Of a DNA stretch of 64,000 bases, positions 3,170-53,045 are shown piece by piece. The notes below the pieces were generated by a model. That model made no database searches. It had not been told where the DNA came from and saw nothing but the letters and a program-made list of their open reading frames with translations. The translations under genes were made by a program, and so were the position numbers. Positions within the stretch are counted from its first letter, which is position 1. Each line of letters opens with the position of its first letter. The DNA is from Candidatus Omnitrophota bacterium (GTDB lineage: Bacteria; Omnitrophota; Gorgyraeia; Gygaellales; Profunditerraquicolaceae): NCBI GenBank assembly GCA_041650835.1, contig JBAZKL010000003.1, positions 163,682 to 227,681 of the forward strand, written 5' to 3'.

Positions 3170-3274
3170 ATATAATTTTATTGATACGGGGTTATAGAAT
3201 GCTTCTGGATACTGACTGTGCAGAAATTACGCCGCACCGTACTTTATTGGAAAGGCAAACGCGCACTTCCTGCG

Positions 3275-3340
3275 CAGGTGTGCTGCTTTCTGTCCAGCAC
3301 ACTGCGCTTATCGGAATTGCGCAGGTATGCGCCTTTCTGG
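3275..3340. repeat. Segment related to the 3' part of the ~160-nt intergenic repeat family, in inverted orientation, with an internal hairpin
   Basis: ctgcgcaggtgtgctgctttctg is the reverse complement of cagaaagcagcacacctgcgcag found at 34557-34580. ataagcgcag is also shared. The internal inverted repeat gcgcaggtgtgctg...cagcacactgcgc forms a hairpin. Confidence 0.35.
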
Positions 3341-3394
3341 CGCAAAAGGACGCACCCAGCAATCCTATTAAGCTGGGGTGCTGCAGCAAGACTT

Positions 3395-3436: not shown

Positions 3437-4003
3437 TTAGTCTTGAGAGATCAAATAATAAACATTAGCGGTAGAGCTATAACGGAAACCTCCCGTGGTC
3501 TGTGTCGCCCCAGGAGAAGCGGTCCCATCCAACTGGGTCTCCATCTTTTGCTCGGCAGCTAAAGGTACGGTACTGATCGTGATTACGCGGGTATTAGGCT
3601 GAGGAGCACCGGCAGTGCCGTCCCAGGCATACGAACCGACGTTCGCGTTTTCATCAGCCGCGGCATAATAGCTATAGTTACCGCTCCATCTTGCTAACGG
3701 CGGCCATTTCTCAATATACGGGCCATCCCAACCGGCAATTGTGGCAGTAGGAGTGGCGGCAATACCATTAGGAGCAGCACCGGCAGAAGCAGACGAAGTC
3801 GGCCAAATACCGCAATCAGAGTAAAATGACATAACTGCCGTCTTGATCGACCGGCAATCTTCAATACTGCTGGCAACCTTTGACTTTTCAATCGCCTTGA
3901 AGGCGTTCGGCGCGATGATCGCGGCTAAAATAGCGATAATAGCGATAACAACAATTAATTCAATCAATGTAAAACCTTTGTTTTTCATGTTTCCCCCTTT
4001 CAC
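3437..4003 (-). CDS. Type IV major pilin / pseudopilin paralog
   Basis: MKGGNMKNKG|[32 protein letters not shown]. The N-terminal ~35 aa after the leader are nearly identical to the pilin at 170..742. Translation may start at the internal Met, giving the leader MKNKG. A strong Shine-Dalgarno (AAGGGGGA) precedes the first ATG. Confidence 0.85.
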   Translation of the reverse strand: MKGGNMKNKGFTLIELIVVIAIIAILAAIIAPNAFKAIEKSKVASSIEDCRSIKTAVMSFYSDCGIWPTSSASAGAAPNGIAATPTATIAGWDGPYIEKWPPLARWSGNYSYYAAADENANVGSYAWDGTAGAPQPNTRVITISTVPLAAEQKMETQLDGTASPGATQTTGGFRYSSTANVYYLISQD

Positions 4004-5841: not shown

Positions 5842-8800
5842 TCACCATAGGACTTGACGCAGGCGGGCATCCATTTCTTCCAATTTATTTAACCAGCTTT
5901 TCACCGCTTTTTCTTTCTTAACCTGAGATGCTTCCTGGCTGGACTGCCGCACCTGATTGGAGCTGCGTTTATTCATTTGATACTCCAACTGCTCTTTATC
6001 GAGCTGCGCCTGCTTACGCCTGTCGATTACCGTTTGCTGCTGGTCAACCTTGGTTTTCGCCGCCATCTCCCGCTTATCGAACAGCGGCTGCTGGCTTTGA
6101 CGCCGCTGCTGCCGTAATTCAGCCTGAAGCTGCCGGTCTTCTATTGCGCGCTGGCGCCTTTCTTGTGCCTGCGCGACAAGCTCTTCCTTATGCTGGCGCG
6201 CTTCTTCTCGAGCGAGCTGCGCCTGCTTTTTTCTCTCTTCTTTGGCAGCCTTCAATTGTTGAACACGCTCAAGCTTTGCTTTTTCCTCCGCGAGCTGTTG
6301 TTCATGGATCTGTTTTTCCTCCTGGGCCTTTTGCTCTACGAGTTGGAGCCTGGATTCTTCTATCTTTTTCAAAGTCTCTAATTTTTGCTGCAGAGCCTCC
6401 TGGTGCTGGGCAAGGCGCTGCTTTTTCAATTCCTGCTCCTGTAAAGCTATTTGGCGCTTTTGCTCTTCAAGCTGATGAATACGCTCCTGTTCCTGCTTTT
6501 CAGCCGCTAAACGTTTTTCTTCTTCCTCCTTAGCCAACTGTTCCAGGCGACTTTTTTCTTCTTCTTCAGCGAAAACACGGGCTGCCGCCGCAGCCTGTTT
6601 TTGCTCCAAAAGCTCTTTATGTTTTTCCGCGACCCTAAGCTTTCTTACCTCTGCCAGCCTTGAGCGCTCCACTTCTGCCTGCTTCTCAGCTGCCAGGCGT
6701 TTTTCTTCTTCCTGTTTAGCCTGCTGCTCCTGGCGCTGATATTCCTCTTTAAGCTGCTTCAGGCGCTCTTGCCGTTTGGCCTCTTCAGCCAAACGCATTG
6801 CTTTCTTGACCCCCGCTTGCTCTTCTGCCAGCTGCTTTTGCTTTTCCTGGGCCTCTTTATCCGCTGCCAACTGCTTCTCTTCCGCTTCCTTGGCCAGGCG
6901 TTCCTGGCGCTGCTCTTCTTCTTTAAGCTGCTTCAGGCGCTCTTGCCGTTTGGCCTCTTCAACCAAACGCATTGCTTTCTTGACCCCCGCTTGCTCTTCT
7001 GCCAGCTGCTTTTGCTTTTCCTGGGCCTCTTTATCCGCTGCCAGCTGCTTCTCTTCCGCTTCCTTGGCCAGGCGTTCCTGACGCTGCTCTTCTTCTTTAA
7101 GCAGCCTTAGGCGTTCTTCCCTTTTCGCCTGCCCAACCAAACGCATTGCTTTCTTGACCCCCGCTTGCTCTTCTGCCAGCTGCTTTTGCTTTTCCTGGGC
7201 CTCTTTATCCGCTGCCAACTGCTTCTCTTCCGCTTCCTTGGCCAGGCGTTCCTGACGCTGGGCCTCCTCCTGCGCGGCTACCGACTTTGCTTCGGCTGCA
7301 ATTCTTTTTTGTTCTAAAAGCTGTTTTCTTTTTTCCGCTGCATTAATCTTATTCTTTGTTTTCAACTCTGCCTGCTCAGCGCTAAGCTGCGCAGACTTTT
7401 CCTGAGCTTCTTTCTCCGCCGCCAGCCGCTTCTCTTCTTCTTCCTGAGCGAGCTGCTCCTCCGATTTCTTTTCTGCAACAGGCTTACGCAAAGACGCCTG
7501 TTCATTCTCTTGCGCTAATTTATTCTTAAGCTTTCCCCTTGCCTTCTTTTGTAATTTCTGTTTACGCAACTCTTCTTTTTGTATCCGGGCCTCTTCTAAA
7601 GAAACCTCTTTTCTTATCGCAAGCCAGGTATCGACATCTTCTGCCTGCTGCTCTCCTGCCGCAGAATCCTGCGGTAGGAGTGAGGGCTCAACCGGAGCTG
7701 TTGCCCTTTCCGGTTTAAGCGCTTCCTGAGGCTTTAAAGCTTCAACCGATTTTTCAACTTCCAGAGCTCTTTTTTTTTCCTGATCCGCTCCCGGCGGCGC
7801 AGATTGAGCGGCTTTCTCTTTTTCCTTTAGACGATCCTGTTTTTCTTGTATTAACTGCTGCTTTTTTTCATCCCTGAGGCGCGCCTGTTCCAACGCTAAT
7901 TGATCCCGGCGTTCTTGCTCCTTCTTTTCAGCCTCAAGGCGCTTTTGCGCTTCCTGCTTCATGCGCTCTTGCCTATCTTTCTTTTCTTCAGCTTTCTTTT
8001 TTAAGCGCGCCTCTTTTGCCTGTTGAACTTCAAGCCTGCGCGCCTCTTTCTGTTTTTCTAACGCGCCCTTTTGCGCCTTCAGCAATTGCTTTTGTTCTTC
8101 GATCTTAGCAAGATACTCCTGCTCCTGCTCGGTCAATTGCTGGGTACATTCCTGCTTTAATTTTTCCTTCTCTTGCTGGAGCTTCTTCTGCGCCGCCTCT
8201 TTTTGCTTCTGTTTTTCTATTTTTATTTTTTCGGCTTCCTGCTTTTTTTCTTCTTCGGCACGAGCGAGTTCTGCGGCGCGCTCTTTTTCTTCCGCCTGCC
8301 GCCTTAACTCTTCCTGTTTTCTTTCTTCAGCCAGAAGCTTTCTTTCTTCCCGGATCTTTTCTTTTGCCGCGGCTAATTCCTGCAGGTGTTCCTGCTTTTC
8401 CCGGGCTGCTTCTCGCCGCTCCTCTTCCCGCTGCTTAAGAAGCTCTTCCTTAGCCTTCTTTGCTTCTTCAAGCTTCTTGAGGCGCGCTTGTTTTATTTGT
8501 TCTTCCTGAGATTTCTTTTCTTCTGCTGCTGCCTGCTTCTCAGCTGCCAGGCGCTTTTCTTCCTCCTGCTTAGCTAACGCATCCTGGCGCTTTTGCTCCT
8601 CTGCTGCCTGCTTCTCGGCTGCCAGGCGCTTTTCTTCCTCCTGCTTAGCTAACGCATCCTGGCGCTTTTGCTCCTCTGCGACCTGCTGAAGGCGCGCTTC
8701 TTTTTTTTGCTGAGCGAGCTTCCTTTTTTCTTCTTTACGCTTTTCCAATTCGCTCAAGCGCTGCCTGCGCTCTTCTTCTTTTTGTTTTTTACTCAGCATC

Positions 8801-9507
8801 TTCCGGCGCTCCTGCTCCGCGCGCTCGGCTTCCAATTGCTGCTGCTGGCGCATCCGTTCTAATTCGAGTTTTTGCGTGATCAATTCCTGCTTCTTCGCTT
8901 CTATCTCCGCCAGGCGTGCCTGCGCCAAGCGCTCGCGCTCTAATTTTTCTTCATTTAATTGTTTTTGCTCTTCTTGCTTTACCATCTCATCTTTACGCCT
9001 GCGCTCCTCATCCTGGGCAAAAAAACGGGCTTGCGTGAAGACTCTTTTTTCTTCCTCCAGATAGATCTGCCGCTGGATCTCTTCTTCTTCCTTTATATAC
9101 TGGTCTATCCTGTTGACCAACGCGCTGATCCTGCCGTCTTCGCCTAAATATTCTGCCTGTATGCCTGAAACGGTTTTCGAAGCCGGCGAGGCTTCACCTA
9201 TTTTTCTGTCCACTCCGCAGGCAGGCATAGCTGGGGCGGGAAAAGACTCAAGGTGCCCTATCTGCATGGTTACCGGCGACTGCTCCTGCAGAAAATCATT
9301 AATCTCTTGTTTCCGGCGTAAGATCTCTTCCTTTTTCTTACGCAGAGAACGAATATACTCTTCCTCTGCCTTGACCTTGCGCTGCATTTCTTCAAGGCGC
9401 AGCTCTTTTTCAGCCATATTATTATCTTGAGCGTAAACAACCCCCGCTCCCCAAACCATGCATCCCGTCACATAAAACCCAGCGATTATTAAAAATAGTC
9501 TTTTCAT
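5842..9507 (-). CDS. Giant coiled-coil lipoprotein (1221 aa, E/K/Q/A/R-rich) with internal tandem repeats
   Basis: Signal peptide with lipobox (FYVTGC). The remainder is almost entirely heptad-like charged low-complexity sequence. A 171-bp (57-aa) unit is repeated three times (about 6770-7260), and an ~80-bp unit twice (about 8520-8680). Antisense plus-strand ORFs also look repetitive for the same reason. Confidence 0.8.
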   Translation of the reverse strand: MKRLFLIIAGFYVTGCMVWGAGVVYAQDNNMAEKELRLEEMQRKVKAEEEYIRSLRKKKEEILRRKQEINDFLQEQSPVTMQIGHLESFPAPAMPACGVDRKIGEASPASKTVSGIQAEYLGEDGRISALVNRIDQYIKEEEEIQRQIYLEEEKRVFTQARFFAQDEERRRKDEMVKQEEQKQLNEEKLERERLAQARLAEIEAKKQELITQKLELERMRQQQQLEAERAEQERRKMLSKKQKEEERRQRLSELEKRKEEKRKLAQQKKEARLQQVAEEQKRQDALAKQEEEKRLAAEKQAAEEQKRQDALAKQEEEKRLAAEKQAAAEEKKSQEEQIKQARLKKLEEAKKAKEELLKQREEERREAAREKQEHLQELAAAKEKIREERKLLAEERKQEELRRQAEEKERAAELARAEEEKKQEAEKIKIEKQKQKEAAQKKLQQEKEKLKQECTQQLTEQEQEYLAKIEEQKQLLKAQKGALEKQKEARRLEVQQAKEARLKKKAEEKKDRQERMKQEAQKRLEAEKKEQERRDQLALEQARLRDEKKQQLIQEKQDRLKEKEKAAQSAPPGADQEKKRALEVEKSVEALKPQEALKPERATAPVEPSLLPQDSAAGEQQAEDVDTWLAIRKEVSLEEARIQKEELRKQKLQKKARGKLKNKLAQENEQASLRKPVAEKKSEEQLAQEEEEKRLAAEKEAQEKSAQLSAEQAELKTKNKINAAEKRKQLLEQKRIAAEAKSVAAQEEAQRQERLAKEAEEKQLAADKEAQEKQKQLAEEQAGVKKAMRLVGQAKREERLRLLKEEEQRQERLAKEAEEKQLAADKEAQEKQKQLAEEQAGVKKAMRLVEEAKRQERLKQLKEEEQRQERLAKEAEEKQLAADKEAQEKQKQLAEEQAGVKKAMRLAEEAKRQERLKQLKEEYQRQEQQAKQEEEKRLAAEKQAEVERSRLAEVRKLRVAEKHKELLEQKQAAAAARVFAEEEEKSRLEQLAKEEEEKRLAAEKQEQERIHQLEEQKRQIALQEQELKKQRLAQHQEALQQKLETLKKIEESRLQLVEQKAQEEKQIHEQQLAEEKAKLERVQQLKAAKEERKKQAQLAREEARQHKEELVAQAQERRQRAIEDRQLQAELRQQRRQSQQPLFDKREMAAKTKVDQQQTVIDRRKQAQLDKEQLEYQMNKRSSNQVRQSSQEASQVKKEKAVKSWLNKLEEMDARLRQVLW

Positions 9508-9517
9508 AAGATAACCT

Positions 9518-10801
9518 CTAATTATCCATCGCCTGTATTTTCCCCGCGACCGTCTTTTTAACTTCCTCTAAAACCCTTAAATCCTGCTCTTGCCTGCGCA
9601 GGTCCTGTTCCAATGCCTCTCTTTCTGAAACCAGGGAAGAATGTTTTTTATTCAACACTTCTACTTTCTTGACCGCTTCTTTCTGCTTATCTTTTTCCCG
9701 GGCCTCAGCTAACAACAATGCTTTTTCTTGCTTCTGCTTATCTTGATAATACGCTTTTCCGAGGCCGAACCGCTCCTGCTGCCCCATCTTAGCATATTCG
9801 TTAGGCGTAATGATAGTAGGAGAAACAAAAATCATTAATTCTGTCTTATCCCTGGTATCCTTCTGGCTCTTAAACAAATAGCCCAATACGGGAATATCTC
9901 CCAACAGAGGGATCTTGGTCTGGCCTTTTGTAACTTTATCTTTAATTAAACCTCCGATTATTAATGTTTGCCCGTTCCCTATAATAACCCTGGTTGTCGC
10001 TTGCCGTTTATCGATAATAGGGACATTATACGTTAAGCCGGAAATAGTCAAGGGCAAATCTCCCGTTTTCTCGCTTACCTGAGGGTCAAGATCCATAGCA
10101 ATTTGCCCATCTTCATTAATAGTCGGGGTAACCTTCAAGCTTATTCCTATTTCTTCAAAATGTATCGTCCAGGTGACCGTTTGATTGCCGGCATCGTCGA
10201 TCGTCACCGACGGCTCTGCCCAAGGATAACTCTGGATAATCTTTAATTCCGCCTGCCGGTTATTAATCGTTGTTATCCGGGGGGAAGAAAGGATATTCGT
10301 ATCCATCGCGTTAGCCAGCGTCTGCACGACAATATTAATATTATCGTCGAAAATAGCAAAGGTAAAAGGAGATTCCGATGTCCCGCCGGTGGCTTGGAGC
10401 GGAGGATAAATGGTATTTTTGTATGAAAGGCTCTGCGTGAGCGGGCCCGGCAACGCTCCTAAAGTACTTGCCGTTCCGGCCTTTAAACTTCCGATAGGGA
10501 GATATCCTTTGTCCGCGAATAACTGCCAGTTGACCCCCAAAGCGTGTTCCTTTTGCAATTTTGATTCAACGACCCGGGCTTCGATCAAAACCTGCTGCGG
10601 AGGCGCATCCGCCATCGCCAGATAATCCTCAACACGCTGGACGTTATCAGGATAATCGATCACAACAATAGAATTCGGCTCATTCCCATAGAGCACCTTT
10701 CCGTCTGTAGATAACAACGACCTAAGATTATCACTGATCTGCTGAGCATGGACTATGGAAAAACAAAAAAGAAAAAATAAAACGCACCCTATTCTTTTCA
10801 T
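9518..10801 (-). CDS. Secretin, GspD/PilQ family, short form with a C-terminal coiled-coil tail
   Basis: Signal peptide. Secretin_N-like SIVVIDYPDNVQRVEDYL. Secretin core motifs VLIEARVVE and TLIIGGLIKD...KIPLLGDIPVLGYLFKS...ELMIFVSP. The last ~80 aa are K/E/Q-rich coiled coil. The start is preceded by AAGGAG. Confidence 0.8.
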   Translation of the reverse strand: MKRIGCVLFFLFCFSIVHAQQISDNLRSLLSTDGKVLYGNEPNSIVVIDYPDNVQRVEDYLAMADAPPQQVLIEARVVESKLQKEHALGVNWQLFADKGYLPIGSLKAGTASTLGALPGPLTQSLSYKNTIYPPLQATGGTSESPFTFAIFDDNINIVVQTLANAMDTNILSSPRITTINNRQAELKIIQSYPWAEPSVTIDDAGNQTVTWTIHFEEIGISLKVTPTINEDGQIAMDLDPQVSEKTGDLPLTISGLTYNVPIIDKRQATTRVIIGNGQTLIIGGLIKDKVTKGQTKIPLLGDIPVLGYLFKSQKDTRDKTELMIFVSPTIITPNEYAKMGQQERFGLGKAYYQDKQKQEKALLLAEAREKDKQKEAVKKVEVLNKKHSSLVSEREALEQDLRRQEQDLRVLEEVKKTVAGKIQAMDN

Positions 10802-30746: not shown

Positions 30747-30854
30747 CAAATATCATTTAAATACTTATATTGTATTGGGTTAAATAGAATAGCACTGATT
30801 AGGAAAGCTGGATATGTAGGAAGGGAAAAATAAAAATGGGTAACTTAAATTTAA

Positions 30855-30975
30855 AGTATAAAGTCTAAATAACAAAGAAAGATCAAAGGTTTAAGGCTCC
30901 TGCCTACCGGCAGGTAGGAAATTTTAAGATTAAACCTTTAATCTTAAGGCTTCCTTTGCTTATTGAGACCTTAAC
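30855..30975. repeat. AT-rich palindromic intergenic element, family 2, copy X
   Basis: taaataacaaag...tcaaaggtttaa...ttaaaccttt...taatcttaag.cttcctttg is homologous to 52925-53045. aaaggtttaa and ttaaaccttt are reverse complements. This copy carries an extra GC hairpin, cctgcc-tacc-ggcagg, at 30899-30914. It starts right at the folC stop codon. Confidence 0.6.
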
Positions 30976-32395
30976 CTTTAAACTTATTATTTGTCAACAA
31001 TGCCTTTGCCTCTCCAATTACAAACATAGAGCCGGTGATAAGGATAACCTCATCGTGACGGGAGATCTTTCGAGCCAGGGATAAAGCGGTTTTAACATTA
31101 ACGGCGACCCGGACCCGCCCATCGCCGATCAAGCCTTCCATCCGCGTATAAATTTCCTGGGGCTTTGCCGCCCGGTTATTCCGGGCACGCGTAAGAATGA
31201 CCTGCTCACTCAAAGGGACAAGCGCTTTACATATGCCGGCAATATCCTTATCACGGGAAATCCCCAGCACAAGGATTACTTTCTTGCCGGGGACGAATTT
31301 TGCCAACGACTCTTTAAGCATCACCGCGGAAGCGGCATTGTGAGCGCCGTCTAAAATGATCCACGGCTGCCGGGATACGATCTCAAACCTCCCCGGCCAA
31401 AGCGTCTTGCGCAACCCATTTTTACACGCCTGCTGCGAAATCTTCACCCGGTAATGCTTCCTGAGCGCCCCGATAATTCCCAGAGCTACCGAAGCATTGA
31501 CCAATTGATGCTCTCCTAATAAAGAGATACGCATCTTGTAAAAATCGCCCAGGGCGCCACTCACCGAGAATTCCTGATAATCAAGCCGGCTGCGCAACTC
31601 GCGGAATATAATATCGCTTCCGACTTTATATAAGAGCGCGGGGATCCGGGAACATTTTTGCTCGATCACGCGTAATGCCGGCTTCTCTTGAGGGGCGGTG
31701 ATCACGACGGGCAACCTTCCCGAGCCGCCTGAACTCCCGGGCGCCTTAATAATGCCCGCCTTCTCTCCGGCGATCGCCGCGAGTGTTGCCCCCAGTTTAC
31801 GCGTATGATCATAGCTGATCGAGGTGATCGCGCAGACAAGAGAATGAGCCACGTTAGTAGAATCGATCCTCCCGCCTAAACCGGTCTCTAACACGACAAA
31901 GTCGGTTTTCTTCTCAAGATAATAAACAAACGCGAAAACAGTAATGGCCTCAAAAAAAGTCAGCGGCCCGTATTTCGACCTGCGGTTATACCTCACTATC
32001 AAAGGCTTAAGACGCAGCGTAAGGCGCGTCAGCTCTTTCTCGGTGATCATCCCTTCAAAATCATTTCCGGCCCCCTGCGGCATCCCCGGGGAAAGCGGTT
32101 TTTTTGATTTATCAAGGATCCTGATCCTCTCCCGCAGATTAAACAAATGCGGAGAAGTAAAAAGCCCGACGGTATATCCTGCTTCACGCAGCATATACGC
32201 GACCATCGAACAAACCGACCCCTTACCCTTCGTACCTGCGACATGGATGACCTTCAGGTTATCCTGAGGGTCATGAATGCTCGCCAAGAAATCCTTGATA
32301 CGCTCCAGCTTCAAAGATTGCTTATACGGATAATGGACCTTCTTTTCGTAATTGATAAAAGAATTTAAATACTGCAGTGTCTGCCGGTATGTCAT
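30971..32395 (-). CDS. folC: Folylpolyglutamate synthase / dihydrofolate synthase
   Basis: Mur-ligase P-loop VIHVAGTKGKGSV...TSPHL, a FolC central domain and a Mur ligase C-terminal domain. 474 aa. Confidence 0.9.
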   Translation of the reverse strand: MTYRQTLQYLNSFINYEKKVHYPYKQSLKLERIKDFLASIHDPQDNLKVIHVAGTKGKGSVCSMVAYMLREAGYTVGLFTSPHLFNLRERIRILDKSKKPLSPGMPQGAGNDFEGMITEKELTRLTLRLKPLIVRYNRRSKYGPLTFFEAITVFAFVYYLEKKTDFVVLETGLGGRIDSTNVAHSLVCAITSISYDHTRKLGATLAAIAGEKAGIIKAPGSSGGSGRLPVVITAPQEKPALRVIEQKCSRIPALLYKVGSDIIFRELRSRLDYQEFSVSGALGDFYKMRISLLGEHQLVNASVALGIIGALRKHYRVKISQQACKNGLRKTLWPGRFEIVSRQPWIILDGAHNAASAVMLKESLAKFVPGKKVILVLGISRDKDIAGICKALVPLSEQVILTRARNNRAAKPQEIYTRMEGLIGDGRVRVAVNVKTALSLARKISRHDEVILITGSMFVIGEAKALLTNNKFKG

Positions 32396-32415: not shown

Positions 32416-33975
32416 TTAATGTTTAAAGTGGCGCACTCCTGTCAGGACCATGGCAATCTTATGCTTATCGCAGGCTTTAATGATCTCGGGATCGGCGATA
32501 GAACCGCCCGGCTGAATAATCGCGCGCACTCCCTTTTTGGCCGCCTCAAAGATCGAATCCGGCTTGGGAAAAAATCCATCGGAAGCCAGGCAGGAATTCA
32601 TAGTACGCCTGCCTGCTTTTGTTTTGGCGATAATAACCGAATCGACCCTCGACATTTGGCCCGCGCCGATGCCGATAGTTTTTGTCCCCTTCGCCAGGAC
32701 AATAGCGTTTGATTTAACGTGCTTGGCGACTTTCCAGGCGAATAAAAGCGCGCGCAACTGCGCCTGAGTCGGTTTCTTACGGGTAACGGTCTTAAGGGCT
32801 TCCTGGCGGACCAGCTCAATATCCTTATCCTGCAATAACAGCCCGCCGGATACTTTTTTAAAATCATACTCCTTACGCGTGCGGCTGTCCTTCAATTCCA
32901 GGACCCGCAGGTTTTTCTTCGCGCTGAAAACCGAGAGCGCCTCTGCGGCGTACCCCGGGGCGATAACGCACTCTAAAAAACCGCTCCCGACGATAACACG
33001 GGCGGCCTTTGCGTCGACCTGGCGGTTTAAACCCACGATCCCTCCGAAGGCGGAAAGTGGATCCCCCGCGAACGCATCCCGGTACGCCTGAGCAATGTCC
33101 TTTGCTTCGGCAACCCCGCAGGGATTATTATGCTTTAAAATGACCGCGGCAGGAGACAAGAATTCTTTCAGCAATTCCCAGGCGCTGTTGAGATCAAGGA
33201 TATTATTAAAAGACAGCTCTTTACCCTGCAGCTGGCGCACGGAAGCTATGCCGCGGAGTGACCCCAGGTCCCGGTAAAATGCCGCTTTCTGATGAGGATT
33301 TTCCCCATAACGCAGGTCCTGGATCTTAGTGAACGACAACTCCAGCTTTGCCGGAAAATCAATCCCCCGGTCTTTTCCGGGCAGCGGCGCGCCTCTGAAG
33401 TACTGATAAATTGCCGCGTCGTATTGCGCGGTATTCTTAAAAACCTCAACCGCTAATTGACGGGCAGTTTCCTGGCTGAGACCTCCCTGGTTCGACTCTA
33501 ATTCTTTCATAACCGCGGCGTACTGGGACACCTGAGAAACTACCGCGACCGAATCATGGTTCTTTGCCGCCGAACGCAGCATTGACGGCCCGCCGATATC
33601 GATATTTTCAATCGCTTCCTCATCGGTTACCGAGGGGCTGGATACGGCCTTTTCAAAAGGGTAGAGATTAACCACCACCATATCGATCAACCCGATCCCT
33701 AAACTTTCAAGCTTCTTCATATGCTCAAGATTATCGCGGACCGCCAAAAGCCCTCCGTGGATATTCGGATGCAGCGTCTTCACCCTGCCGTCGAGTATTT
33801 CCGGAAAACCGGTGTAATCAGACACATCCTTTACCTCAAGGCCGCTCTCCCGCAATAATTTTGCCGTGCCGCCCGTCGAAAGGATCTCCACGCCGAATTT
33901 ATTGAGCGTTTTCGCTAAATCCAAAACCCCTGTTTTATCCGATACGCTGATAAGCGCCCGCTTTATTTTTATCAT
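32416..33975 (-). CDS. purH: Bifunctional AICAR transformylase / IMP cyclohydrolase
   Basis: The N-terminal MGS-like domain (KRALISVSDKTGVLDLAK...ILSTGGTAKLL) and the AICARFT domain are conserved throughout. GAGGAG lies 5 nt upstream of the ATG. Confidence 0.95.
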   Translation of the reverse strand: MIKIKRALISVSDKTGVLDLAKTLNKFGVEILSTGGTAKLLRESGLEVKDVSDYTGFPEILDGRVKTLHPNIHGGLLAVRDNLEHMKKLESLGIGLIDMVVVNLYPFEKAVSSPSVTDEEAIENIDIGGPSMLRSAAKNHDSVAVVSQVSQYAAVMKELESNQGGLSQETARQLAVEVFKNTAQYDAAIYQYFRGAPLPGKDRGIDFPAKLELSFTKIQDLRYGENPHQKAAFYRDLGSLRGIASVRQLQGKELSFNNILDLNSAWELLKEFLSPAAVILKHNNPCGVAEAKDIAQAYRDAFAGDPLSAFGGIVGLNRQVDAKAARVIVGSGFLECVIAPGYAAEALSVFSAKKNLRVLELKDSRTRKEYDFKKVSGGLLLQDKDIELVRQEALKTVTRKKPTQAQLRALLFAWKVAKHVKSNAIVLAKGTKTIGIGAGQMSRVDSVIIAKTKAGRRTMNSCLASDGFFPKPDSIFEAAKKGVRAIIQPGGSIADPEIIKACDKHKIAMVLTGVRHFKH

Positions 33976-34262
33976 CGATCTCCTCTATTCTATAGCAACT
34001 TAATATTCAAGTAAGGATATCCTGTGACTTGTGTATAGATAGTATGTTTATTAGTGAACGGGTCTTTGTCTTGGACTGTTTTCTCGCGGGGACGTTTGCC
34101 CCGCCCCGGCGTGGCGGGGCTGCACTCAAGTCGGCTGCGTCGCTCTGCCCGACTTCGTTTATCGAGGGGCATCCGTGCCCGCTCCTTGCCTTTATGCCCC
34201 GCTCGTAAACAATCCAAGCCACCCGTTCAACGGAATCCAGAAACTTCAGACCTGCGACCTGT
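33976..34262 (-). promoter_or_regulatory. Long GC-rich structured 5' leader of purH-folC; candidate cis-regulatory RNA or riboswitch, class not assignable by eye
   Basis: About 285 nt with no credible ORF. It is locally much more GC-rich than its surroundings and has several strong hairpins, for example gcgggg-caaacgt-ccccgc. A GGGcAGAGCGAC segment loosely resembles the ZTP/pfl core. Sequence context fits ZTP/pfl-class regulation of purH and folate genes. Confidence 0.3.
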
Positions 34263-34366
34263 TTACCCTGAGCGTCTTATAACTTTACCTGTTAATTAAG
34301 TCGAAGGGTTTACCCTCCAGCGTCTTATAACTTTACCTGTTAATTAAGTCGAAGGGTTTACCCGAT
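34261..34366. repeat. Tandem direct repeat: 2 full units of 48 bp plus a partial leading unit
   Basis: agcgtcttataactttacctgttaattaagtcgaagggtttaccc occurs at 34271-34315 and again at 34319-34363. It is preceded by gtttaccc at 34261-34268. Each unit contains the palindrome TTAATTAA. Confidence 0.8.
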
Positions 34367-34392
34367 CTTGTCAAGGGTGATTTCTGTAATTT

Positions 34393-34549
34393 AACTTTAC
34401 GGTTTTTGCTTTAAGCGCACATTTGAAAACTTTCGGCACTGAAATCTATCTGTAGTGCGCAAAGATTTACGGCGAGTTGAAGCACGCTCTTTACGTAAGT
34501 CTATAGCGTAAACGAGCCGTAAACTGCAGCGCACGGCGAAAGTTTTTTT
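34393..34549 (+). repeat. ~157-nt structured intergenic element, family 1, copy B; candidate small RNA or MITE-like element
   Basis: It matches 47600-47756 nearly exactly apart from a ~20-nt central segment. Several hairpins are built from TTTACG/CGTAAA pairs (ctctttacg-taagtctatag-cgtaaacgag and tttacggc...gccgtaaa) and from gcgcac/gtgcgc. It ends with ggcgaaagttttttt. Confidence 0.75.
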
Positions 34550-34692
34550 GCTGCAGAAAGCAGCACACCTGCGCAAGTCCTATAAGCGCAGGGTGAAGCG
34601 TAAGCGAAAACCGGAAAGTTAAACGCCTACTATTAACTATCGACAATTTTGCGACCTGCCATCTGAGACTTGTGTCATGCGACCTGTAAATC

Positions 34693-35424
34693 CTATTTAT
34701 TAAACCTGAAATTCGCCAGGTCGGCATCCTGCATAATATAATCTTTTTGCTCAAGGCGCTGCTTTCCAGCTTGTTTTGCCTGCGTCTCCCCGCCTGCCTG
34801 TATAAAATCGTTAAAGCTGATGATCTCCGCGCGGATAAAGCCTTTCTGAATATCGGAATGGATCACGCCCGCGGCCTCCCAGGCAGTCGCCCCCTGCTTT
34901 AAGCTCCAGGCGCGGTTTTCTTTGTCGCCAACCGTAAAAAAACTGATATAACCGCTTTCTTTATACGCCTTGGCTAAAACACCGCTTAAATCCTCCAACT
35001 CCTGCTTCTCGACGCAAACAACGGGCTTGCCCGTCACCAAGCCGTAGCCGGCCATTAATTCTTTTTCTGCAGGGGTTAAAGGAGCGTTAAAAATAAATTC
35101 TTCTTTTTCCAGGAGTGTCTTTAGTTTTTGCAACAGCGCTTTTTCCTCTTCTGAAGCGCTGCGGCCCAGGCGGCCTTCGACAAATTCCAGGTCCTTGATG
35201 ATCAAATCGGTGCGGGAATCAGATAAGGTCAGGATAGCGTCGGCATTCGGGATATCATTCTCTCCGACAAGCTCAACCTGAACGGGGGTCTTTTTCTTTG
35301 CCTTGACTAACTTATCAGCCTGATCAAGGCGGGGGTCTTTAATATTTTGCTTGCCTACGGTTAAATCCGGGACGCAATAAAGGGCGATCTTCATGTTTTT
35401 TGTGCGCGCATAACTTATGAGCAC
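34693..35424 (-). CDS. YchF/Obg-family homolog with TGS/DUF933 C-terminal domain but lacking the P-loop; a possible pseudo-GTPase or 5'-truncated remnant
   Basis: The C-terminal 130 aa match the YchF consensus closely (FFTVGDKENRAWSLKQGATAWEAAGVIHSDIQKGFIRAE...QAGKQRLEQKDYIMQDADLANFRF). The N-terminus aligns only from YchF residue ~38 (DPRLDQ). No GxxxxGKS/T G1 motif is present. Confidence 0.6.
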   Translation of the reverse strand: MLISYARTKNMKIALYCVPDLTVGKQNIKDPRLDQADKLVKAKKKTPVQVELVGENDIPNADAILTLSDSRTDLIIKDLEFVEGRLGRSASEEEKALLQKLKTLLEKEEFIFNAPLTPAEKELMAGYGLVTGKPVVCVEKQELEDLSGVLAKAYKESGYISFFTVGDKENRAWSLKQGATAWEAAGVIHSDIQKGFIRAEIISFNDFIQAGGETQAKQAGKQRLEQKDYIMQDADLANFRFNK

Positions 35425-44639: not shown

Positions 44640-47543
44640 CTAGAACGCGTGGCTCAAACCTATCCAAAAATGCGTATCCTCTTTCGGATCATTGATAGGC
44701 CGGGCGATATCAAGGCGCAGCACCGCCTTTTCCAGAAATCCGGCAATATCAAAATGCAGGCGCAAGCCTAACCCCGCGTCCTTCTTAAAATGAGCGCCTT
44801 CAAAATCGTTATGCCAGGCCTTGGCGATATCAAAAAATCCGACGCCCTGAATTTTATTCAGGCAAAAAACATTGTCCAGGAAATACATTTTCATATCTTT
44901 GGTCAAAGGAAAACGGTACTCCGCCGTTCCTAAAACCATACGCGCCCCCTGGATCGTTTCCCTGCCATACCCCCGCAATCCATCCGCGCCTCCCAAATCA
45001 AAAAGGTCCTTATCTCCCGGGCCTCCCCATCCAACCTTGAGGCGTGTCGCTATTTTCTGTGAAAGCTTCGGCACCAGCAGGCGGTAATTATCCAATTCTA
45101 AACTCGTGCGCCAAAAAGATTCTTTTCCTCCCAGGAAATGTCCGGCAAATTCCTGCTGAGGGGTGAATTTCCAGCCATAATCCGGATCTGCATACGGGCC
45201 GTACCGGCACAAAGAAGCGGCCATGCCGACGATCGATTCATCCGTTTTTCGATAAACGGTATTGCGGGCGTCTTCCGCGCCATTAACAGCGGCCTGTTGA
45301 TCAAGTTTTTGATCCCTTAAAAGATACAAAGTAACATGATCATTAAGGTCAAAAATGCCGTACCGCGCCGGCCATAGTTCTCGCCTGATATAAAGCTTGC
45401 CGCCGGACACATCTTTACGGCGCGTACGGTAATTGCGGTTAAAAACCTCAAGCCCCACGGACACCTGTTTATTGAAAAGGTGGGGCAACTCATAGCCGGC
45501 CGTATATTCCGACTCTTTATCATTAAAATCGTAGAGAGAAGAAAATTTCACCAGCCCATCATAGGGCTTTGCCGCCGAGGCAGCCGCCCCCATCCGCGAC
45601 CCCCGAAGATCAGGGCCGAAAACCACATTATAAGATCCGGCAGGCATCAGGGAAGGGATCTCATAGGCAAAGAAATACCAGGGGACCGGCTTAAGAAAAA
45701 TATGCCGCGGCCAGGAATTGTTTACCCGGTCCACATCCAGGATGATCTTATTATCCGGATCGACCACGACTTGAGAAACCGCCTTGCCGGCATCAAGAGG
45801 TAAAGCTATATCCCGCCCGCGCCCGTCCCACTGAAAAACACTTTGCGTTTGGTCGCGATAAACGACCCTTGCTTCAACCGGCATTTCGATCGAACCGCGG
45901 TTTTCTAAAACAAACGCCCCTTCACCCGACGGCTTCACGGCATAATCGCAGGTTTTCTTGGTCTTCAGCCAATTATTAAAGAATCCGGTCAAGTCTTCGC
46001 CCGATTCCTCATTACAGATCCTCACAAGATCACTCAATGCGAAATTCTTGAACCTGAATTCTTCGGTATAACGCTTCATGATCCGCTCGAACACCCGGCT
46101 GCCGACGAAAGCCTCGAGCATTTCCAAAACAGCGGCGCCCTTGCCGTAGGTCAAGGCGAATATCGATGAGGGCTCCTGAAAGCTCGAAAGGTCGCTTACG
46201 ACCGGCCCATCGAGAGAATTTTTCGCCAGGTACAGGTAACGGGCGACCGTTGAGCCGTGAAATGTAAAATCAGGAATTAGCCACCGTAGCGCCGGCGGCA
46301 AAGTCAGAACGGAGGCGTTCTTCCCGTAAACATGCTCCAAATAACGTAATATCCAATATGAATTCATGCCCTCATCAAGGAACATCTCCCTGTATTCATC
46401 GGAACCGATGATATTATAAAACCATTGATGGCCGGTCTCATGCGATATGAGGAAATTAAAATAGCGCTCCAAAAACCCGGGGACCCGATAAACGCGCGTA
46501 TCAATAAATATAAAACTGGAAGACTGGCACCCGCCGTATCCTAAATAACTCGGGACAATGGAAAAATTCTTATACGGATACGGCCCGAAGCGTTCGGCGT
46601 AAAACCGCATTAATGACGCGGCGTAATCGGCGGCGGAAACCGCTCTTTTTTCGTCGCCTTTAAGATAATACGAATAGATCGTCGCATCGCCATACGCAAG
46701 TTTATGCACTAAAAATGACCTGCTGAGCCCCAATGAAAAGTCCCTCACCGGGAATTCCGTCTCCATAACAAGGGTTTTTGTCCCGTCAGGGTTGTCTGTT
46801 TGGCCTTTTACTAAAGCCGTTGAAGCCACGATCTCATCCCGCGGCAGAGTAAAGGTGACCTTATAATAAGCGGCTTCACTGAAATAAGGCTGGTGATAAA
46901 TATAAAAAGGATAATTATGCCACCCAGATTTATCCACAACGCTTAAGATCGGATACCAGCGGGCAAGGCTGGTGATCTCCCGGTGCCAGCCGAACCTGCC
47001 GTATGCGTGAGGTATCTCGACCTTGAAATCCAAGGTAACCTCTTGAGTATCACCGGGTTTAAGCGGTGAATCAAGCTCAACCTTAAGGATCGTCCGGTCA
47101 TCGCCTTCCACGCGGTAAGCAAGCGCCGAACCCTTCGCGGATACTTTTTCTATTTTTAGATCTCCCCCCTGAAATCCTTCAGGGAAAGGATTCATTTTGA
47201 AATAACCGGCATACCGGTACATGAAACCGATCTCTTTTTTTGTGTACGTGCGGTGAGGATAGATATGAAAATAAAGGGCATCAAGGGGAATGTCGGTGTT
47301 ATTGGTAAACGCGACTTTCTGGCTGGCCGCGATAGTATGATTTTTAGTATCCAACTCGGCGGTAATATCATAGCGGGGGCATTCGGCGGCGTAAGAAAGT
47401 AAGAAATTGAAAACAAAAAGGCAAAAGAAAAACGCAAGAAACAATACAAACCTTACGCTCTTATTCATATCAAAAACTCCTGATTTTCCGGGTGCCCCAG
47501 TCGCCAGTACACCAGTTACTATAACTATGGACCATAGTCTCAA
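44640..47543 (-). CDS. Fusion protein: N-terminal M1-type (aminopeptidase N-like) zinc metallopeptidase domain plus C-terminal Omp85/BamA-type outer-membrane beta-barrel
   Basis: The N-terminal hydrophobic region carries alternative starts (M1 or MNKSVRF). The gluzincin motif is HETGHQWFYNIIGSDEYREMFLDEGMNSYW (HExxH...E). The C-terminal ~350 aa have amphipathic beta-strand periodicity, the Omp85 signature FDLGGADGLRGYG (LGG...LRGY) and a terminal aromatic (...WIGLSHAF). Confidence 0.7.
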   Translation of the reverse strand: MRLWSIVIVTGVLATGAPGKSGVFDMNKSVRFVLFLAFFFCLFVFNFLLSYAAECPRYDITAELDTKNHTIAASQKVAFTNNTDIPLDALYFHIYPHRTYTKKEIGFMYRYAGYFKMNPFPEGFQGGDLKIEKVSAKGSALAYRVEGDDRTILKVELDSPLKPGDTQEVTLDFKVEIPHAYGRFGWHREITSLARWYPILSVVDKSGWHNYPFYIYHQPYFSEAAYYKVTFTLPRDEIVASTALVKGQTDNPDGTKTLVMETEFPVRDFSLGLSRSFLVHKLAYGDATIYSYYLKGDEKRAVSAADYAASLMRFYAERFGPYPYKNFSIVPSYLGYGGCQSSSFIFIDTRVYRVPGFLERYFNFLISHETGHQWFYNIIGSDEYREMFLDEGMNSYWILRYLEHVYGKNASVLTLPPALRWLIPDFTFHGSTVARYLYLAKNSLDGPVVSDLSSFQEPSSIFALTYGKGAAVLEMLEAFVGSRVFERIMKRYTEEFRFKNFALSDLVRICNEESGEDLTGFFNNWLKTKKTCDYAVKPSGEGAFVLENRGSIEMPVEARVVYRDQTQSVFQWDGRGRDIALPLDAGKAVSQVVVDPDNKIILDVDRVNNSWPRHIFLKPVPWYFFAYEIPSLMPAGSYNVVFGPDLRGSRMGAAASAAKPYDGLVKFSSLYDFNDKESEYTAGYELPHLFNKQVSVGLEVFNRNYRTRRKDVSGGKLYIRRELWPARYGIFDLNDHVTLYLLRDQKLDQQAAVNGAEDARNTVYRKTDESIVGMAASLCRYGPYADPDYGWKFTPQQEFAGHFLGGKESFWRTSLELDNYRLLVPKLSQKIATRLKVGWGGPGDKDLFDLGGADGLRGYGRETIQGARMVLGTAEYRFPLTKDMKMYFLDNVFCLNKIQGVGFFDIAKAWHNDFEGAHFKKDAGLGLRLHFDIAGFLEKAVLRLDIARPINDPKEDTHFWIGLSHAF

Positions 47544-47599
47544 GTCTCAAGTCGCAGGTCGCATGATACATGTTGTCGATGGTTCATGGAAGAAAGGAT

Positions 47600-47756
47600 A
47601 ACTTTACGGTTTTTGCTTTAAGCGCACATTTGAAAACTTTCGGCACAGGGGTTTCATCTACAGTGCGCAAAGATTTACGGCGAGTTGAAGCACGCTCTTT
47701 ACGTAAGTCTATAGCGTAAACGAGCCGTAAACTGTAGCGCACGGCGAAAGTTTTTT
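47600..47756 (+). repeat. ~157-nt structured intergenic element, family 1, copy C
   Basis: It matches copy B (34393-34549) nearly exactly over ~140 of 157 nt. The hairpin architecture and terminal gaaagtttttt are the same. Its flanks contain GCGACCTG/CAGGTCGC motifs, as do the flanks of copy B. Confidence 0.75.
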
Positions 47757-47798
47757 GTGCGCGTAAGCAAAAAGCGTAAAGTTTGCCCATGCCATGGA

Positions 47799-48449
47799 CT
47801 ATTTTGCAACCTGTGACTTTCCCAAGGGACAACACTCACACCGGGGCTTCCTCTTCAAGCAAAACTCCTTGCCTGCCCGCACCAAAAGAGCATGAAATTC
47901 ATTATAAAGCGGCGCATCGGGTTTAAGCCTGCTCATACATAAAAACTGTACGGTATGGTAACCGTCATTTTCCGCTATCAGCTTATGCCGGAGGAATATC
48001 CTTTTTGTGTACGCGTCGACGACAAAAACAGGTTTTTGGAACGCGTAAAGCAAGATCGCATCCGCGGTTTCCGGCCCGACCCCATTGACCAAAAGCAACT
48101 CCTCCCGCAAAAGAGGGGAGGCGACAACCGACATTTTTTCCAAATCCCCCCCATAACGGGAAAACAGGTATTCCAAGAAATTCTTCAAACGGTGAGCCTT
48201 AATATTATAATATCCCGCGGGAACAATTATTGCCGCTAATTTTTTCTCAGGCAAACGGTAGAGCTTCCCGGGAGACAATACCTTCTTTACTTTTAAATTA
48301 TCAAGCGCCCGTTCGACATTTACCCAACTTGTATTTTGCGTCAGGATCGCCCCGACGATAACTTCCCAGGGATCATCTGCCGGCCACCAGGCTTGCGGCC
48401 CGAAATGCTTGTATAACTTGTTATAAATTGAACGAAGAGTCGAAGTCAT
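47799..48449 (-). CDS. nth: Endonuclease III-family DNA glycosylase (HhH-GPD with [4Fe-4S] cluster)
   Basis: HhH-GPD LLLVNGVGPETADAILLYAF with the catalytic Asp context (VVDAY). The C-terminus has CLKRKPRCECCPLGKSQ (Cx6CxxCx5C-like). Confidence 0.85.
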   Translation of the reverse strand: MTSTLRSIYNKLYKHFGPQAWWPADDPWEVIVGAILTQNTSWVNVERALDNLKVKKVLSPGKLYRLPEKKLAAIIVPAGYYNIKAHRLKNFLEYLFSRYGGDLEKMSVVASPLLREELLLVNGVGPETADAILLYAFQKPVFVVDAYTKRIFLRHKLIAENDGYHTVQFLCMSRLKPDAPLYNEFHALLVRAGKEFCLKRKPRCECCPLGKSQVAK

Positions 48450-48451
48450 AT

Positions 48452-48524
48452 ACTCGGTATTCGGTACTCGGTGATCGGTGTTCGACCAGAATAGTCGCCG
48501 ATAACCGAGTACCGAATACCGAGT
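48452..48524. promoter_or_regulatory. Large near-perfect inverted repeat (28-bp arms, 17-nt loop) spanning the nth translation-initiation region
   Basis: actcggtattcggtactcggtgatcggtg (48452-48480) against gccgataaccgagtaccgaataccgagt (48497-48524). The left arm begins 3 nt upstream of the nth ATG. The upstream gene stops at 48533. Confidence 0.65.
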
Positions 48525-48532
48525 ACCGACAA

Positions 48533-52897: not shown

Positions 52898-52924
52898 ATG
52901 AAATTATACTGAGCTGTAACGTTA

Positions 52925-53045
52925 ATAATAAAGTTTAAAGGTTAAATAACAAAGGAATTTCAAAGAATAAAGGTTTAATTTTAAAATTTAACCTTTTTAC
53001 TTTAATCTTCCTTTGATATTTAGTCTTTAATTTTTAACCTTGTAT
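52925..53045. repeat. AT-rich palindromic intergenic element, family 2, copy Y
   Basis: ttaaataacaaaggaatttcaaagaataaaggtttaattttaaaatttaacctttttactttaatcttcctttgatatttag is homologous to 30855-30975. It lies immediately downstream of the pabC stop and upstream of the transglutaminase-like lipoprotein gene. Confidence 0.6.

Follow-up and report, generated by a model that had tools for sequence, protein, structure and literature searches.

We describe a structured repeat that occurs twice in a 64,000-nt stretch of DNA (the window) from a Candidatus Omnitrophota bacterium (assembly GCA_041650835.1, contig JBAZKL010000003.1, positions 163,682 to 227,681 of the forward strand). Its two copies in the window, A and B, belong to a family of ~185-nt imperfect palindromes that fold into a long hairpin, for which we use the name rod. 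We propose, with a probability of about one half, that copies A and B represent a low-copy, non-autonomous mobile hairpin element that is selected in its single-stranded form. Compensatory change upholds the pairing of the outer stem, and very strong constraint acts on the sequence of the interior. Comparison with related genomes shows that intergenic spacers have gained or lost the rod over the time in which species diverge, and it is this turnover, together with the inverted-repeat ends, the mixed orientation and the repeat-rich neighbourhood, that points to a non-autonomous mobile element. The rod is a previously undescribed element and is neither a classical miniature inverted-repeat transposable element (MITE) nor a REPIN.

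Two copies of the rod in the window

Pairwise alignment identified 34392-34548 and 47599-47756 as direct repeats, in which the 5′ 48 nt are 100% identical and the 3′ 101 nt are 97% identical. A structural pattern composed of the four TTTACG/CGTAAA boxes of the element matched the window at two sites, copies A and B, where shuffled sequences gave an expectation of 0.00. The near-identical copies reported at two intergenic sites by a first-pass annotation of this DNA are thus real repeats. That annotation also placed both on the plus strand between minus-strand operons, and this was borne out by the genes on either side: copy A is located between purH (32416-33975) and a ychF-type GTPase gene (34693-35424), and copy B between an M1-peptidase/Omp85 gene and an HhH-GPD glycosylase gene (47799-48449), all on the minus strand. 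The copies had been described as almost identical except for a ~20-nt central segment. There is indeed a single differing block, but it is 15-16 nt long (34440-34454 in A and 47647-47662 in B, with about half of the positions different) and is accompanied by one C/T difference.

The extent of the element required revision. It had been taken to be a 157-nt folding unit ending in gaaagttttttt, but this piece alone folds no better than shuffled sequences (z -1.2 and -2.5), whereas the full unit does (z -7.5 for B and -6.2 for A). The full unit runs on to a right inverted repeat beyond the T-run, which complements the first 28 nt inversely. Copy B (47600-47783, + strand) is 184 nt long without any insert and scores 227 bits with the covariance model described below; its right inverted repeat GTGCGCGTAAGCAAAAAGCGTAAAGTT (47757-47783, + strand) is the inverse complement of the element start. 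Copy A (34393-34620, + strand; 172 bits) is 228 nt long including a nested 43-nt insert, and its pairing reaches out to 34390-34623. Its left inverted repeat AACTTTACGGTTTTTGCTTTAAGCGCAC (34393-34420, + strand) forms the 5′ arm of helices 1 and 2 and is partnered by the right inverted repeat GTGAAGCGTAAGCGAAAACCGGAAAGTT (34593-34620, + strand), which lies beyond the nested insert. The T-run of copy A (34543-34549, + strand) is internal to the element, where it forms the 3′ arm of helix 3 opposite GAAAA at 34427-34431. The insert itself (34550-34592, + strand) is a two-hairpin module, GCTGC-AGAAA-GCAGC followed by CACCTGCGC...GCGCAGGGTG, and is situated at the junction of helix 3 and helix 2.

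The variable block of copy A, TGAAATCTATCTGTA (34440-34454, + strand), falls within a one-sided bulge between helices 3 and 4. That of copy B, AGGGGTTTCATCTACA (47647-47662, + strand), is nearest to the variable blocks of two copies from a related genome (L002 and L003; the loci compared are given L numbers). The hexamer TTTACG/CGTAAA occurs six times per element and builds three separate helices of the same sequence. A small open reading frame (ORF) in the rod was considered and rejected, since the frame shifts between copies through the indel in the variable block and no ORF is conserved.

Occupied and empty sites in related genomes

The pattern used to scan public genomes demanded TTTACGG in the middle helix, and the AATTACGG subtype was thus outside the scan. 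True copies were recovered from public genomes and metagenomes at two loci of the metagenome-assembled genome (MAG) GCA_964588175.1 (L002 and L003) and on six JGI metagenome contigs (L004-L009). In all, nine distinct copies have been recognised, all of them metagenome-assembled, all in an Omnitrophota clade and in eight housekeeping gene contexts; further copies therefore exist outside the window. The genes adjoining the copies include purH, cysS/tmk, pstB/phoU, leuA, a radical-SAM gene, a gene for a periplasmic binding protein and polysaccharide export genes, and the orientation of the rod relative to its neighbours is mixed, sense in some cases and antisense in others. A pattern match in a Chloroflexi MAG (L001) was discarded on reading as a chance hit, and viral contigs, plasmids and phages gave no rod match. 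As far as searched, the rod appears to be confined to a narrow clade of uncultured Omnitrophota. The covariance model, applied with and without filters to the window and 21 loci, found no further or degenerate rods; its weak matches at 48449-48527 and 30846-30985 are different palindromes that resemble the rod in shape only.

Could the resemblance be due to chance, or to an error of assembly in which a repeat was collapsed or chimeric? All the data are metagenome-assembled, and contigs L007 and L009 end inside the rod. However, independent assemblies give the same locus-specific copies: L009 (JGI) is the same as L012 (NCBI MAG), and L007 is close to L003. An ENA contig (L010) carries copy A and the adjoining tandem repeat exactly as in the window, and a Logan contig (L011) spans the adjacent purH flank. 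With species-specific flanks in addition, and a pattern that shuffled sequences do not produce, this explanation is effectively refuted.

We designated the genome of the window species 1, GCA_964588175.1 species 2 (PurH 85% identical) and the Ga0376277 genome species 3 (PurH 83%). Species 2 is titled 'uncultured Planctomycetales bacterium', though it is syntenic with the window and its PurH, HhH-GPD and PhoU proteins are 80-94% identical to those of the window MAG (Candidatus Omnitrophota); one of the two MAG labels, Planctomycetales or Omnitrophota, is probably wrong.

Three spacers differ in rod content among these species. Both the window and species 2 (L012) have a ychF-purH spacer of 718 nt that contains the rod, whereas in species 3 (L013) this spacer is 33 nt long and rod-free. 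The spacer between the HhH-GPD and M1-Omp85 genes contains a rod solely in the window, with none in species 2 (L014) or in L015. Conversely, the pstB-phoU spacer contains one solely in species 2 (L003/L007): there is none in L016, which is from the window's own genome, or in L018, L020 and L021, and the rod-free spacer of species 3 measures 94 nt. L016 has the same left flank as the species 2 pstB-phoU rod up to the insertion point. That these three spacers are empty in sister species shows that the element is gained or lost like mobile DNA.

Several details of these spacers were recorded alongside. The rod-free pstB-phoU spacer of species 1 (L016 ~9845-9860) contains GGAAAGTTA, which matches the right terminus of the rod and may be the remnant of a deleted one. 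A degenerate sequence resembling a second right arm, GAGCGAGAAAACCGGCAGGTT, is present in species 2 ~31 nt downstream of the intact rod (L003 ~7135-7160, - strand). The M1-peptidase/Omp85 ORF beside copy B (44640-47543, - strand) has a TTG start and is probably overlong; alignment with species 2 (L014 5037) points to an ATG near 47467, and with this start the copy B spacer is 331 nt.

The occupied ychF-purH site allowed orthologous rods to be compared. The species 2 orthologue of copy A (L012 755-951) is alike in its flanks, its variable-block subtype and its insert, and its variable block has the same nucleotide as copy A at 13/15 positions, while paralogues differ. Between species 1 and 2 the rods are 95% identical, the nested insert 98% and the right inverted repeat 96%, as against 82% for purH over all positions and 65% at its third codon positions. 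The 28 nt upstream of the rod are 96% identical, and the remainder of the spacer is 68-85% identical with many indels. Outside the bulge, copies A and B are closer to each other than A is to its own orthologue, which suggests gene conversion between the paralogues of species 1.

Pairing, strand preference and transcription

A consensus structure and a covariance model were built from eight complete aligned copies. The consensus consists of 61 pairs in seven helices (-71.8 kcal/mol), with 98.8% of the cells paired. The + strand of copy B folds as a single 61-bp rod of -78.8 kcal/mol, 7.7 kcal/mol better than its - strand (-71.1 kcal/mol, z -7.2). Copy A with its insert folds at -93.6 kcal/mol and keeps the outer stem; the insert adds two extra hairpins at the junction and breaks no helix. 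Imperfect terminal inverted repeats of ~28 nt, corresponding to helices 1 and 2 (24 pairs), are present in 8/8 complete copies, and the pairing of the T-run (columns 39-43 with 158-162) is likewise invariant. The variable block forms a bulge of 18 nt on the 5′ strand and faces no nucleotides on the other side (alignment columns 52-69, unpaired in the consensus). Its sequences fall into three related subtypes, TGAAAT.., AGGGGTTT.. and AGAGNTTTAC.., and are homologous rather than random spacers.

Both-sided changes were found at six pairs; as many were seen in 0/500 shuffles, and slid controls gave 0-2. In L002 the outer 10 bp have been exchanged on both arms for AGTTTTAATG/CATTAAAACT, in L006 one A-U pair has become G-C, and pair 78:140 is evenly split, with A-U in four copies and G-C in the other four. 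Covariation is confined to the outer helix and pair 78:140. The aligned copies therefore show compensatory change and not the decay expected of dead repeats, the outcome that the first-pass annotation had set against a conserved structured unit. Apart from the bulge, variation is concentrated in outer helix 1. Helices 2-4, 6 and 7, all loops and the interior spacing are invariant across the eight copies, and this invariance makes the alignment uninformative on pairing in those helices. Among the cells that are not Watson-Crick pairs there are 15 G.U against one C.A, an imbalance indicating that pairing is maintained on the + strand. An alternative pairing of the 6-mers before TGCGC and CGCAC (CTGTAG/CTGCAG type) was rejected, as it holds in 4/9 copies and fails elsewhere. 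Taken together, the closing stem, in which pairing alone is required, the unchanging interior and the strand-specific tolerance of G.U/G.T suggest that it is the folded + strand that is recognised.

These data bear directly on the possibility that the element functions as duplex DNA, with its six inverted TTTACG(G)/(C)CGTAAA boxes serving as an operator, centromere or transposase-binding array and the hairpin arising as a by-product of their dyad symmetry. The sixfold occurrence of the hexamer in three helices of like sequence and the invariant interior spacing would be expected of such a site cluster. It leaves the strand-specific G.T tolerance unexplained, however, and in L002 the whole outer stem has been replaced compensatorily by unrelated, box-free sequence. 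Moreover, the outermost box is degenerate (CCGGAAAG) in 5/8 complete aligned copies and has the same form in the L012 orthologue of copy A. We consider this explanation highly unlikely.

A serious rival is that the rods are paralogous, independently transcribed structured small RNAs (sRNAs) of ~185 nt from the + strand, in which the core would bind a protein or adopt a tertiary fold, the bulge would set target specificity, and mobility would be incidental, through duplication and loss. This reading explains the constraint on the interior better than a mobile element does, and the mobility worse. The loops and interior are invariant across species whose third codon positions have diverged to 65% identity, the outer stem covaries in the manner of a sequence-independent closing helix, and the G.U bias is toward the + strand. 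The insertion of 43 nt at a helix junction resembles an expansion segment, and the variable block is kept in orthologues and different in paralogues, as sequence setting a target might be. In its size, covarying closing stem, conserved core, paralogue-specific unpaired region and low copy number, the rod also resembles 6S RNA and families of sibling sRNAs, but its bulge is one-sided and not an open bubble.

No sigma-70-like promoter was found by scanning in or before copy A or B; the two promoter-like hits in the scanned regions, at 33947 and 34713, are both outside the rod, and the upstream flanks of the copies are unrelated to one another. Read by eye, TTGTCA/G-N18-TAACTT precedes A, L012 and L005 only. 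There a dispersed module, GACCTGTTTACCCCGAGCTTGTCGAGGGG, supplies the TTGTCA/G box 18 nt before TAACTT and could provide a weak promoter. Candidate sigma-54 (GGCAC-N5-TTTCA) and internal sigma-70 (TTGAAA-N17-TAYCTG) promoters were rejected for want of the critical -12 GC or -7 T. The T-run is base-paired inside the rod with the right arm beyond it, and a terminator scan called none in or beside either copy. The Rfam search proposed by the first-pass annotation gave no match at the gathering threshold in the whole window, 6S included; at E up to 10, the region 34000-34800 gave three chance-level matches with less than half the gathering score. A tRNA/tmRNA search found none. Finally, rods appear and disappear at unrelated loci from one sister species to the next, without flanking duplicated DNA, unlike ordinary gene duplication. 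On balance, we regard the sRNA reading as possible but unlikely. In view of the mixed orientation to transcription and the lack of a shared promoter, we favour recognition as single-stranded DNA (ssDNA).

The rod might instead be a hairpin exapted by the host in the manner of REP/BIME or ERIC sequences, acting in either orientation as a terminator, insulator or mRNA-stabilising structure and no longer mobile. Helix 3 does have an A-tract/stem/T-tract symmetry, GAAAACTTTCG ... CGAAAGTTTTTT, folds are strong on both strands, and all copies lie between genes, several of them at positions that in species 3 are within tight operons (ychF-purH and pstB-phoU). Yet helix 3 with its T6-7, for all its terminator-like symmetry, has only 3-4 G-C pairs and encloses a branched interior of 110 nt, the stem beside the T-run is weak, and the terminator scan was empty. 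Given the mixed orientation to genes, this explanation also fails to account for the invariant loops and the + strand G.U bias, and sister species manage without a rod at the same spacers. It appears distinctly improbable.

Mobility, known elements and neighbouring repeats

If the rod is a mobile hairpin, as we favour, the selected form would be the single-stranded hairpin of the + strand, and a protein encoded elsewhere would recognise it in trans. This role could be filled by a strand-specific recombinase that acts on ssDNA, of the HUH/Y1 or integrase kind; such an enzyme would explain why there is no target-site duplication, no orientation bias to genes and a strand-specific tolerance of G.T/G.U. 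The outer stem would need pairing only and the invariant interior would constitute the recognition surface. In read-through transcripts the rod, with the A-tract/stem/T-tract of helix 3, would additionally be expected to behave as a processing, stabilising or terminating hairpin between the neighbouring genes, which would be a side consequence.

Several observations weigh against this proposal. Copy number is apparently low, with two copies in ~85 kb of this genome and six metagenome contigs, and another 20.7 kb of the same contig contains no rod. All sequences come from metagenome assemblies. The check for target-site duplications raised in the first-pass annotation was made on the flanks of 8 copies, and no direct repeat was seen; the left TA belongs to the element, and on the right the dinucleotide is not constant (TA, TT, AG, GT, GA). 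No gene for a transposase, recombinase, integrase, reverse transcriptase or Cas protein is present among the ~50 ORFs of the window, and no transposase, recombinase, reverse transcriptase or Cas gene adjoins the other copies. The termini vary most and the interior does not vary, the opposite of MITEs bound by a transposase at their terminal inverted repeats and of REPINs. At any single locus, loss can mimic gain. For selfish DNA, moreover, an identity of 95% between vertically inherited orthologues is difficult to account for unless there is selection or gene conversion is frequent.

Comparison with known elements places the rod between categories. The first-pass annotation had offered an sRNA family or a MITE-like element, and the MITE-like half of this suggestion agrees with the terminal inverted repeats, the copies dispersed in both orientations and the empty sites, but not with the missing target-site duplication and the poorly conserved termini. 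The same holds for MITEs with terminal inverted repeats derived from insertion sequences: the rod is likewise small, non-coding and dispersed, with ~28-nt terminal inverted repeats and presence/absence polymorphism, but in L002 the outer 10 bp are wholly different on both arms. No parent insertion sequence with rod ends was found in the available sequence.

Correia elements (CREE/NEMIS) of Neisseria and ERIC/IRU elements of enterobacteria are intergenic imperfect palindromes of 100-160 bp with terminal inverted repeats, found in either orientation. Their subfamilies differ by an internal block or insert, and as co-transcribed hairpins they affect mRNA processing or termination. Correia elements have a TA duplication, IHF and promoter sites and hundreds of copies, and ERICs decay between species. 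The rod, by contrast, has no target-site duplication and few copies, and retains 95-99% identity across species in which silent sites are saturated.

The rod shares with REPINs an extragenic, non-coding nature, the lack of a target-site duplication and a single long ssDNA or RNA hairpin with compensatory changes, and compensatory change has been described in the long hairpins of mobile REPINs (PMC3116915). Both are inherited vertically over long periods and can sit in other palindromes or repeat clusters; palindromic repeats inserted inside other palindromes are on record (PMC3733652). A strand-specific ssDNA mechanism of the REPIN kind would suit the G.T/G.U bias of the rod. REPINs are defined, however, as inverted REP palindromes with a conserved GTAG/CGTC end tag and a less conserved spacer (PMC3733652). 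In REPINs the ends (the REP 16-mers) are conserved and the spacer is variable, whereas in the rod the ends vary and the interior is invariant. The rod is also about twice as long and apparently low-copy, and no RAYT (Y1/HUH) gene is present among the ~50 ORFs of the window. A reading as a GTAG-REP dimer was rejected because the tetramers before TGCGC/CGCAC vary (GTAG, GCAG, ACAG, GAAG, GCGG) and are in direct orientation on the same strand. Literature on Planctomycetes or Omnitrophota (MITEs, 6S, non-coding RNA) gave no description of the rod, and none of the non-coding repertoire of Omnitrophota was found in literature on the phylum, non-coding RNA or repeats.

We also considered that the rod might be a self-propagating structured RNA, or the RNA part of a mobile ribonucleoprotein, whose invariant core would draw in a recombinase or nuclease from another locus and whose one-sided, paralogue-specific bulge would recognise a nucleic-acid target in the way of a guide or bridge RNA. 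Such a role for the variable block was examined by eye and rejected as unsupported: comparison of each block with its own flanks for identity or complementarity gave only A/T-rich matches of 5-7 nt, and these do not covary between the orthologues A and L012. This reading is very doubtful.

The insert of copy A is part of a separate small repeat family, which stands alone near a pilin gene and is nested in three rods. The 43-nt module is present in A, L008 and L012/L009 and absent from B and L002-L006. Its general form is GCNNC-AGAAA-GNNGC followed by CACCTGCGC..GCGCAGGGTG, with a T-run before it; the copies in L008 and L012 are at 1216-1267 and 743-794. About 1.5 copies are found at 3271-3345 (- strand), just downstream of a gene at 3437-4003 for a type IV pilin with N_methyl and T2SSG domains. 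Local alignment of 3271-3345 to the copy A insert revealed two compensatory pairs in hairpin 1 (GCUGC/GCAGC in one and GCGCC/GGCGC in the other). The first-pass annotation had seen here a related fragment with a 24-nt core of the element, inverted at 3283-3306. An inverted exact match does exist, but it is 22 nt long, joins 3271-3292 to 34554-34575 and lies inside the nested insert, outside the 157-nt element; the fragment is a copy of the insert module and not of the rod core. In the surrounding type IV pilus/secretin cluster, 5842-9507 (- strand) encodes a 1,221-aa ORF without a Pfam match; tandem repeats of 174 nt occur within it, and its AT skew is extreme.

Other small repeats crowd the same spacers. 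The motifs CAGGTCGC/GCGACCTG previously noted beside the copies are real flanking features, 4/5 of their sites in the window being within ~140 nt of the copy ends (three within ~80 nt). To the right of copy A, a heptamer-like array (34646-34686) contains GCGACCTG twice and GAGACTTG, with a shorter array to the left (34250-34261); to the left of copy B the array reads TCAAGTC TCAAGTC GCAGGTC GCA (47538-47565), with a weaker one to the right (47806-47817). In the window spacers, degenerate heptamer hits (CAGGTCG/CAAGTCT/CAGGTCA) number 8 in the 1,048 nt of the two rod spacers against 0 in 4,235 nt of other intergenic spacers. Such arrays are also found in L003, L004, L012, L014-L016 and L020, and because those of L014, L015 and L016 are in rod-free spacers, the arrays are not part of the rod. 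The module GACCTGTTTACCCCGAGCTTGTCGAGGGG similarly occurs in rod-free spacers as well as beside rods, where both its side and its orientation vary; its sites are L014 4820-4852, L020 998-1026, L004 4527-4555 and 4859-4877, L016 14437-14464 and 5071-5094, L005 322-344 and, in diverged form, window 34356-34385.

Upstream of copy A, a 48-bp unit, AGCGTCTTATAACTTTACCTGTTAATTAAGTCGAAGGGTTTACCC, is repeated ~2.1 times at 34262-34363. It is bracketed by GTTTACCC and contains ATAACTTTAC, which is like the left end of the rod. The unit is absent at the orthologous site of species 2, is repeated in tandem over a greater length elsewhere on the contig (L016 4846-5094) and occurs in L021 (3298-3326). Within the same spacer, 34068-34194 is a GC-rich block of 127 nt with three hairpins (CCCCGCC..GGCGGGG, AAGTCGG..CCGACTT and GGGCA..TGCCC) that is missing from the alignable species 2 spacer and has no second copy in the loci compared. 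Between the HhH-GPD and PilZ genes, 48451-48525 is a near-perfect palindrome with 28-nt arms (96% complementary) and a 19-nt loop, composed of a different heptamer (TACTCGG TATTCGG TACTCGG TGATCGG); arrays of the same CCGANNA/TNNTCGG heptamer are also present beside the rod in L006 (downstream flank) and in L015 (~860-900). An AT-rich palindromic family, TTAAATTTAAAGTATAAAGTCTAAATAACAAAGG..., is represented in the window (52922-53036 and 30845-30958) and in L003 (2415-2534), L016 (5197-5334) and L021 (8104-8134). None of the dispersed small modules of the rod spacers was detected in 42 kb of species 3.

The rod breaks metagenome contigs (L007 and L009) and widens spacers in tight operons, and is therefore relevant to MAG annotation and operon prediction. 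The family now has a defined covariance model for an uncultured Omnitrophota clade, and its filled and empty sites in sister species offer a clean natural experiment. What is unusual is that a palindrome with the look of mobile DNA retains 95-99% identity across a divergence that saturates silent sites. If the mobile-ribonucleoprotein reading were true, the rod would be a stand-alone, multi-copy programmable RNA in Omnitrophota and not mere selfish DNA. If the constraint comes from a host or ribonucleoprotein function, the rods would represent a new class of structured RNA; if it comes from a recombinase, they would point to an undescribed strand-specific system of mobilisation.

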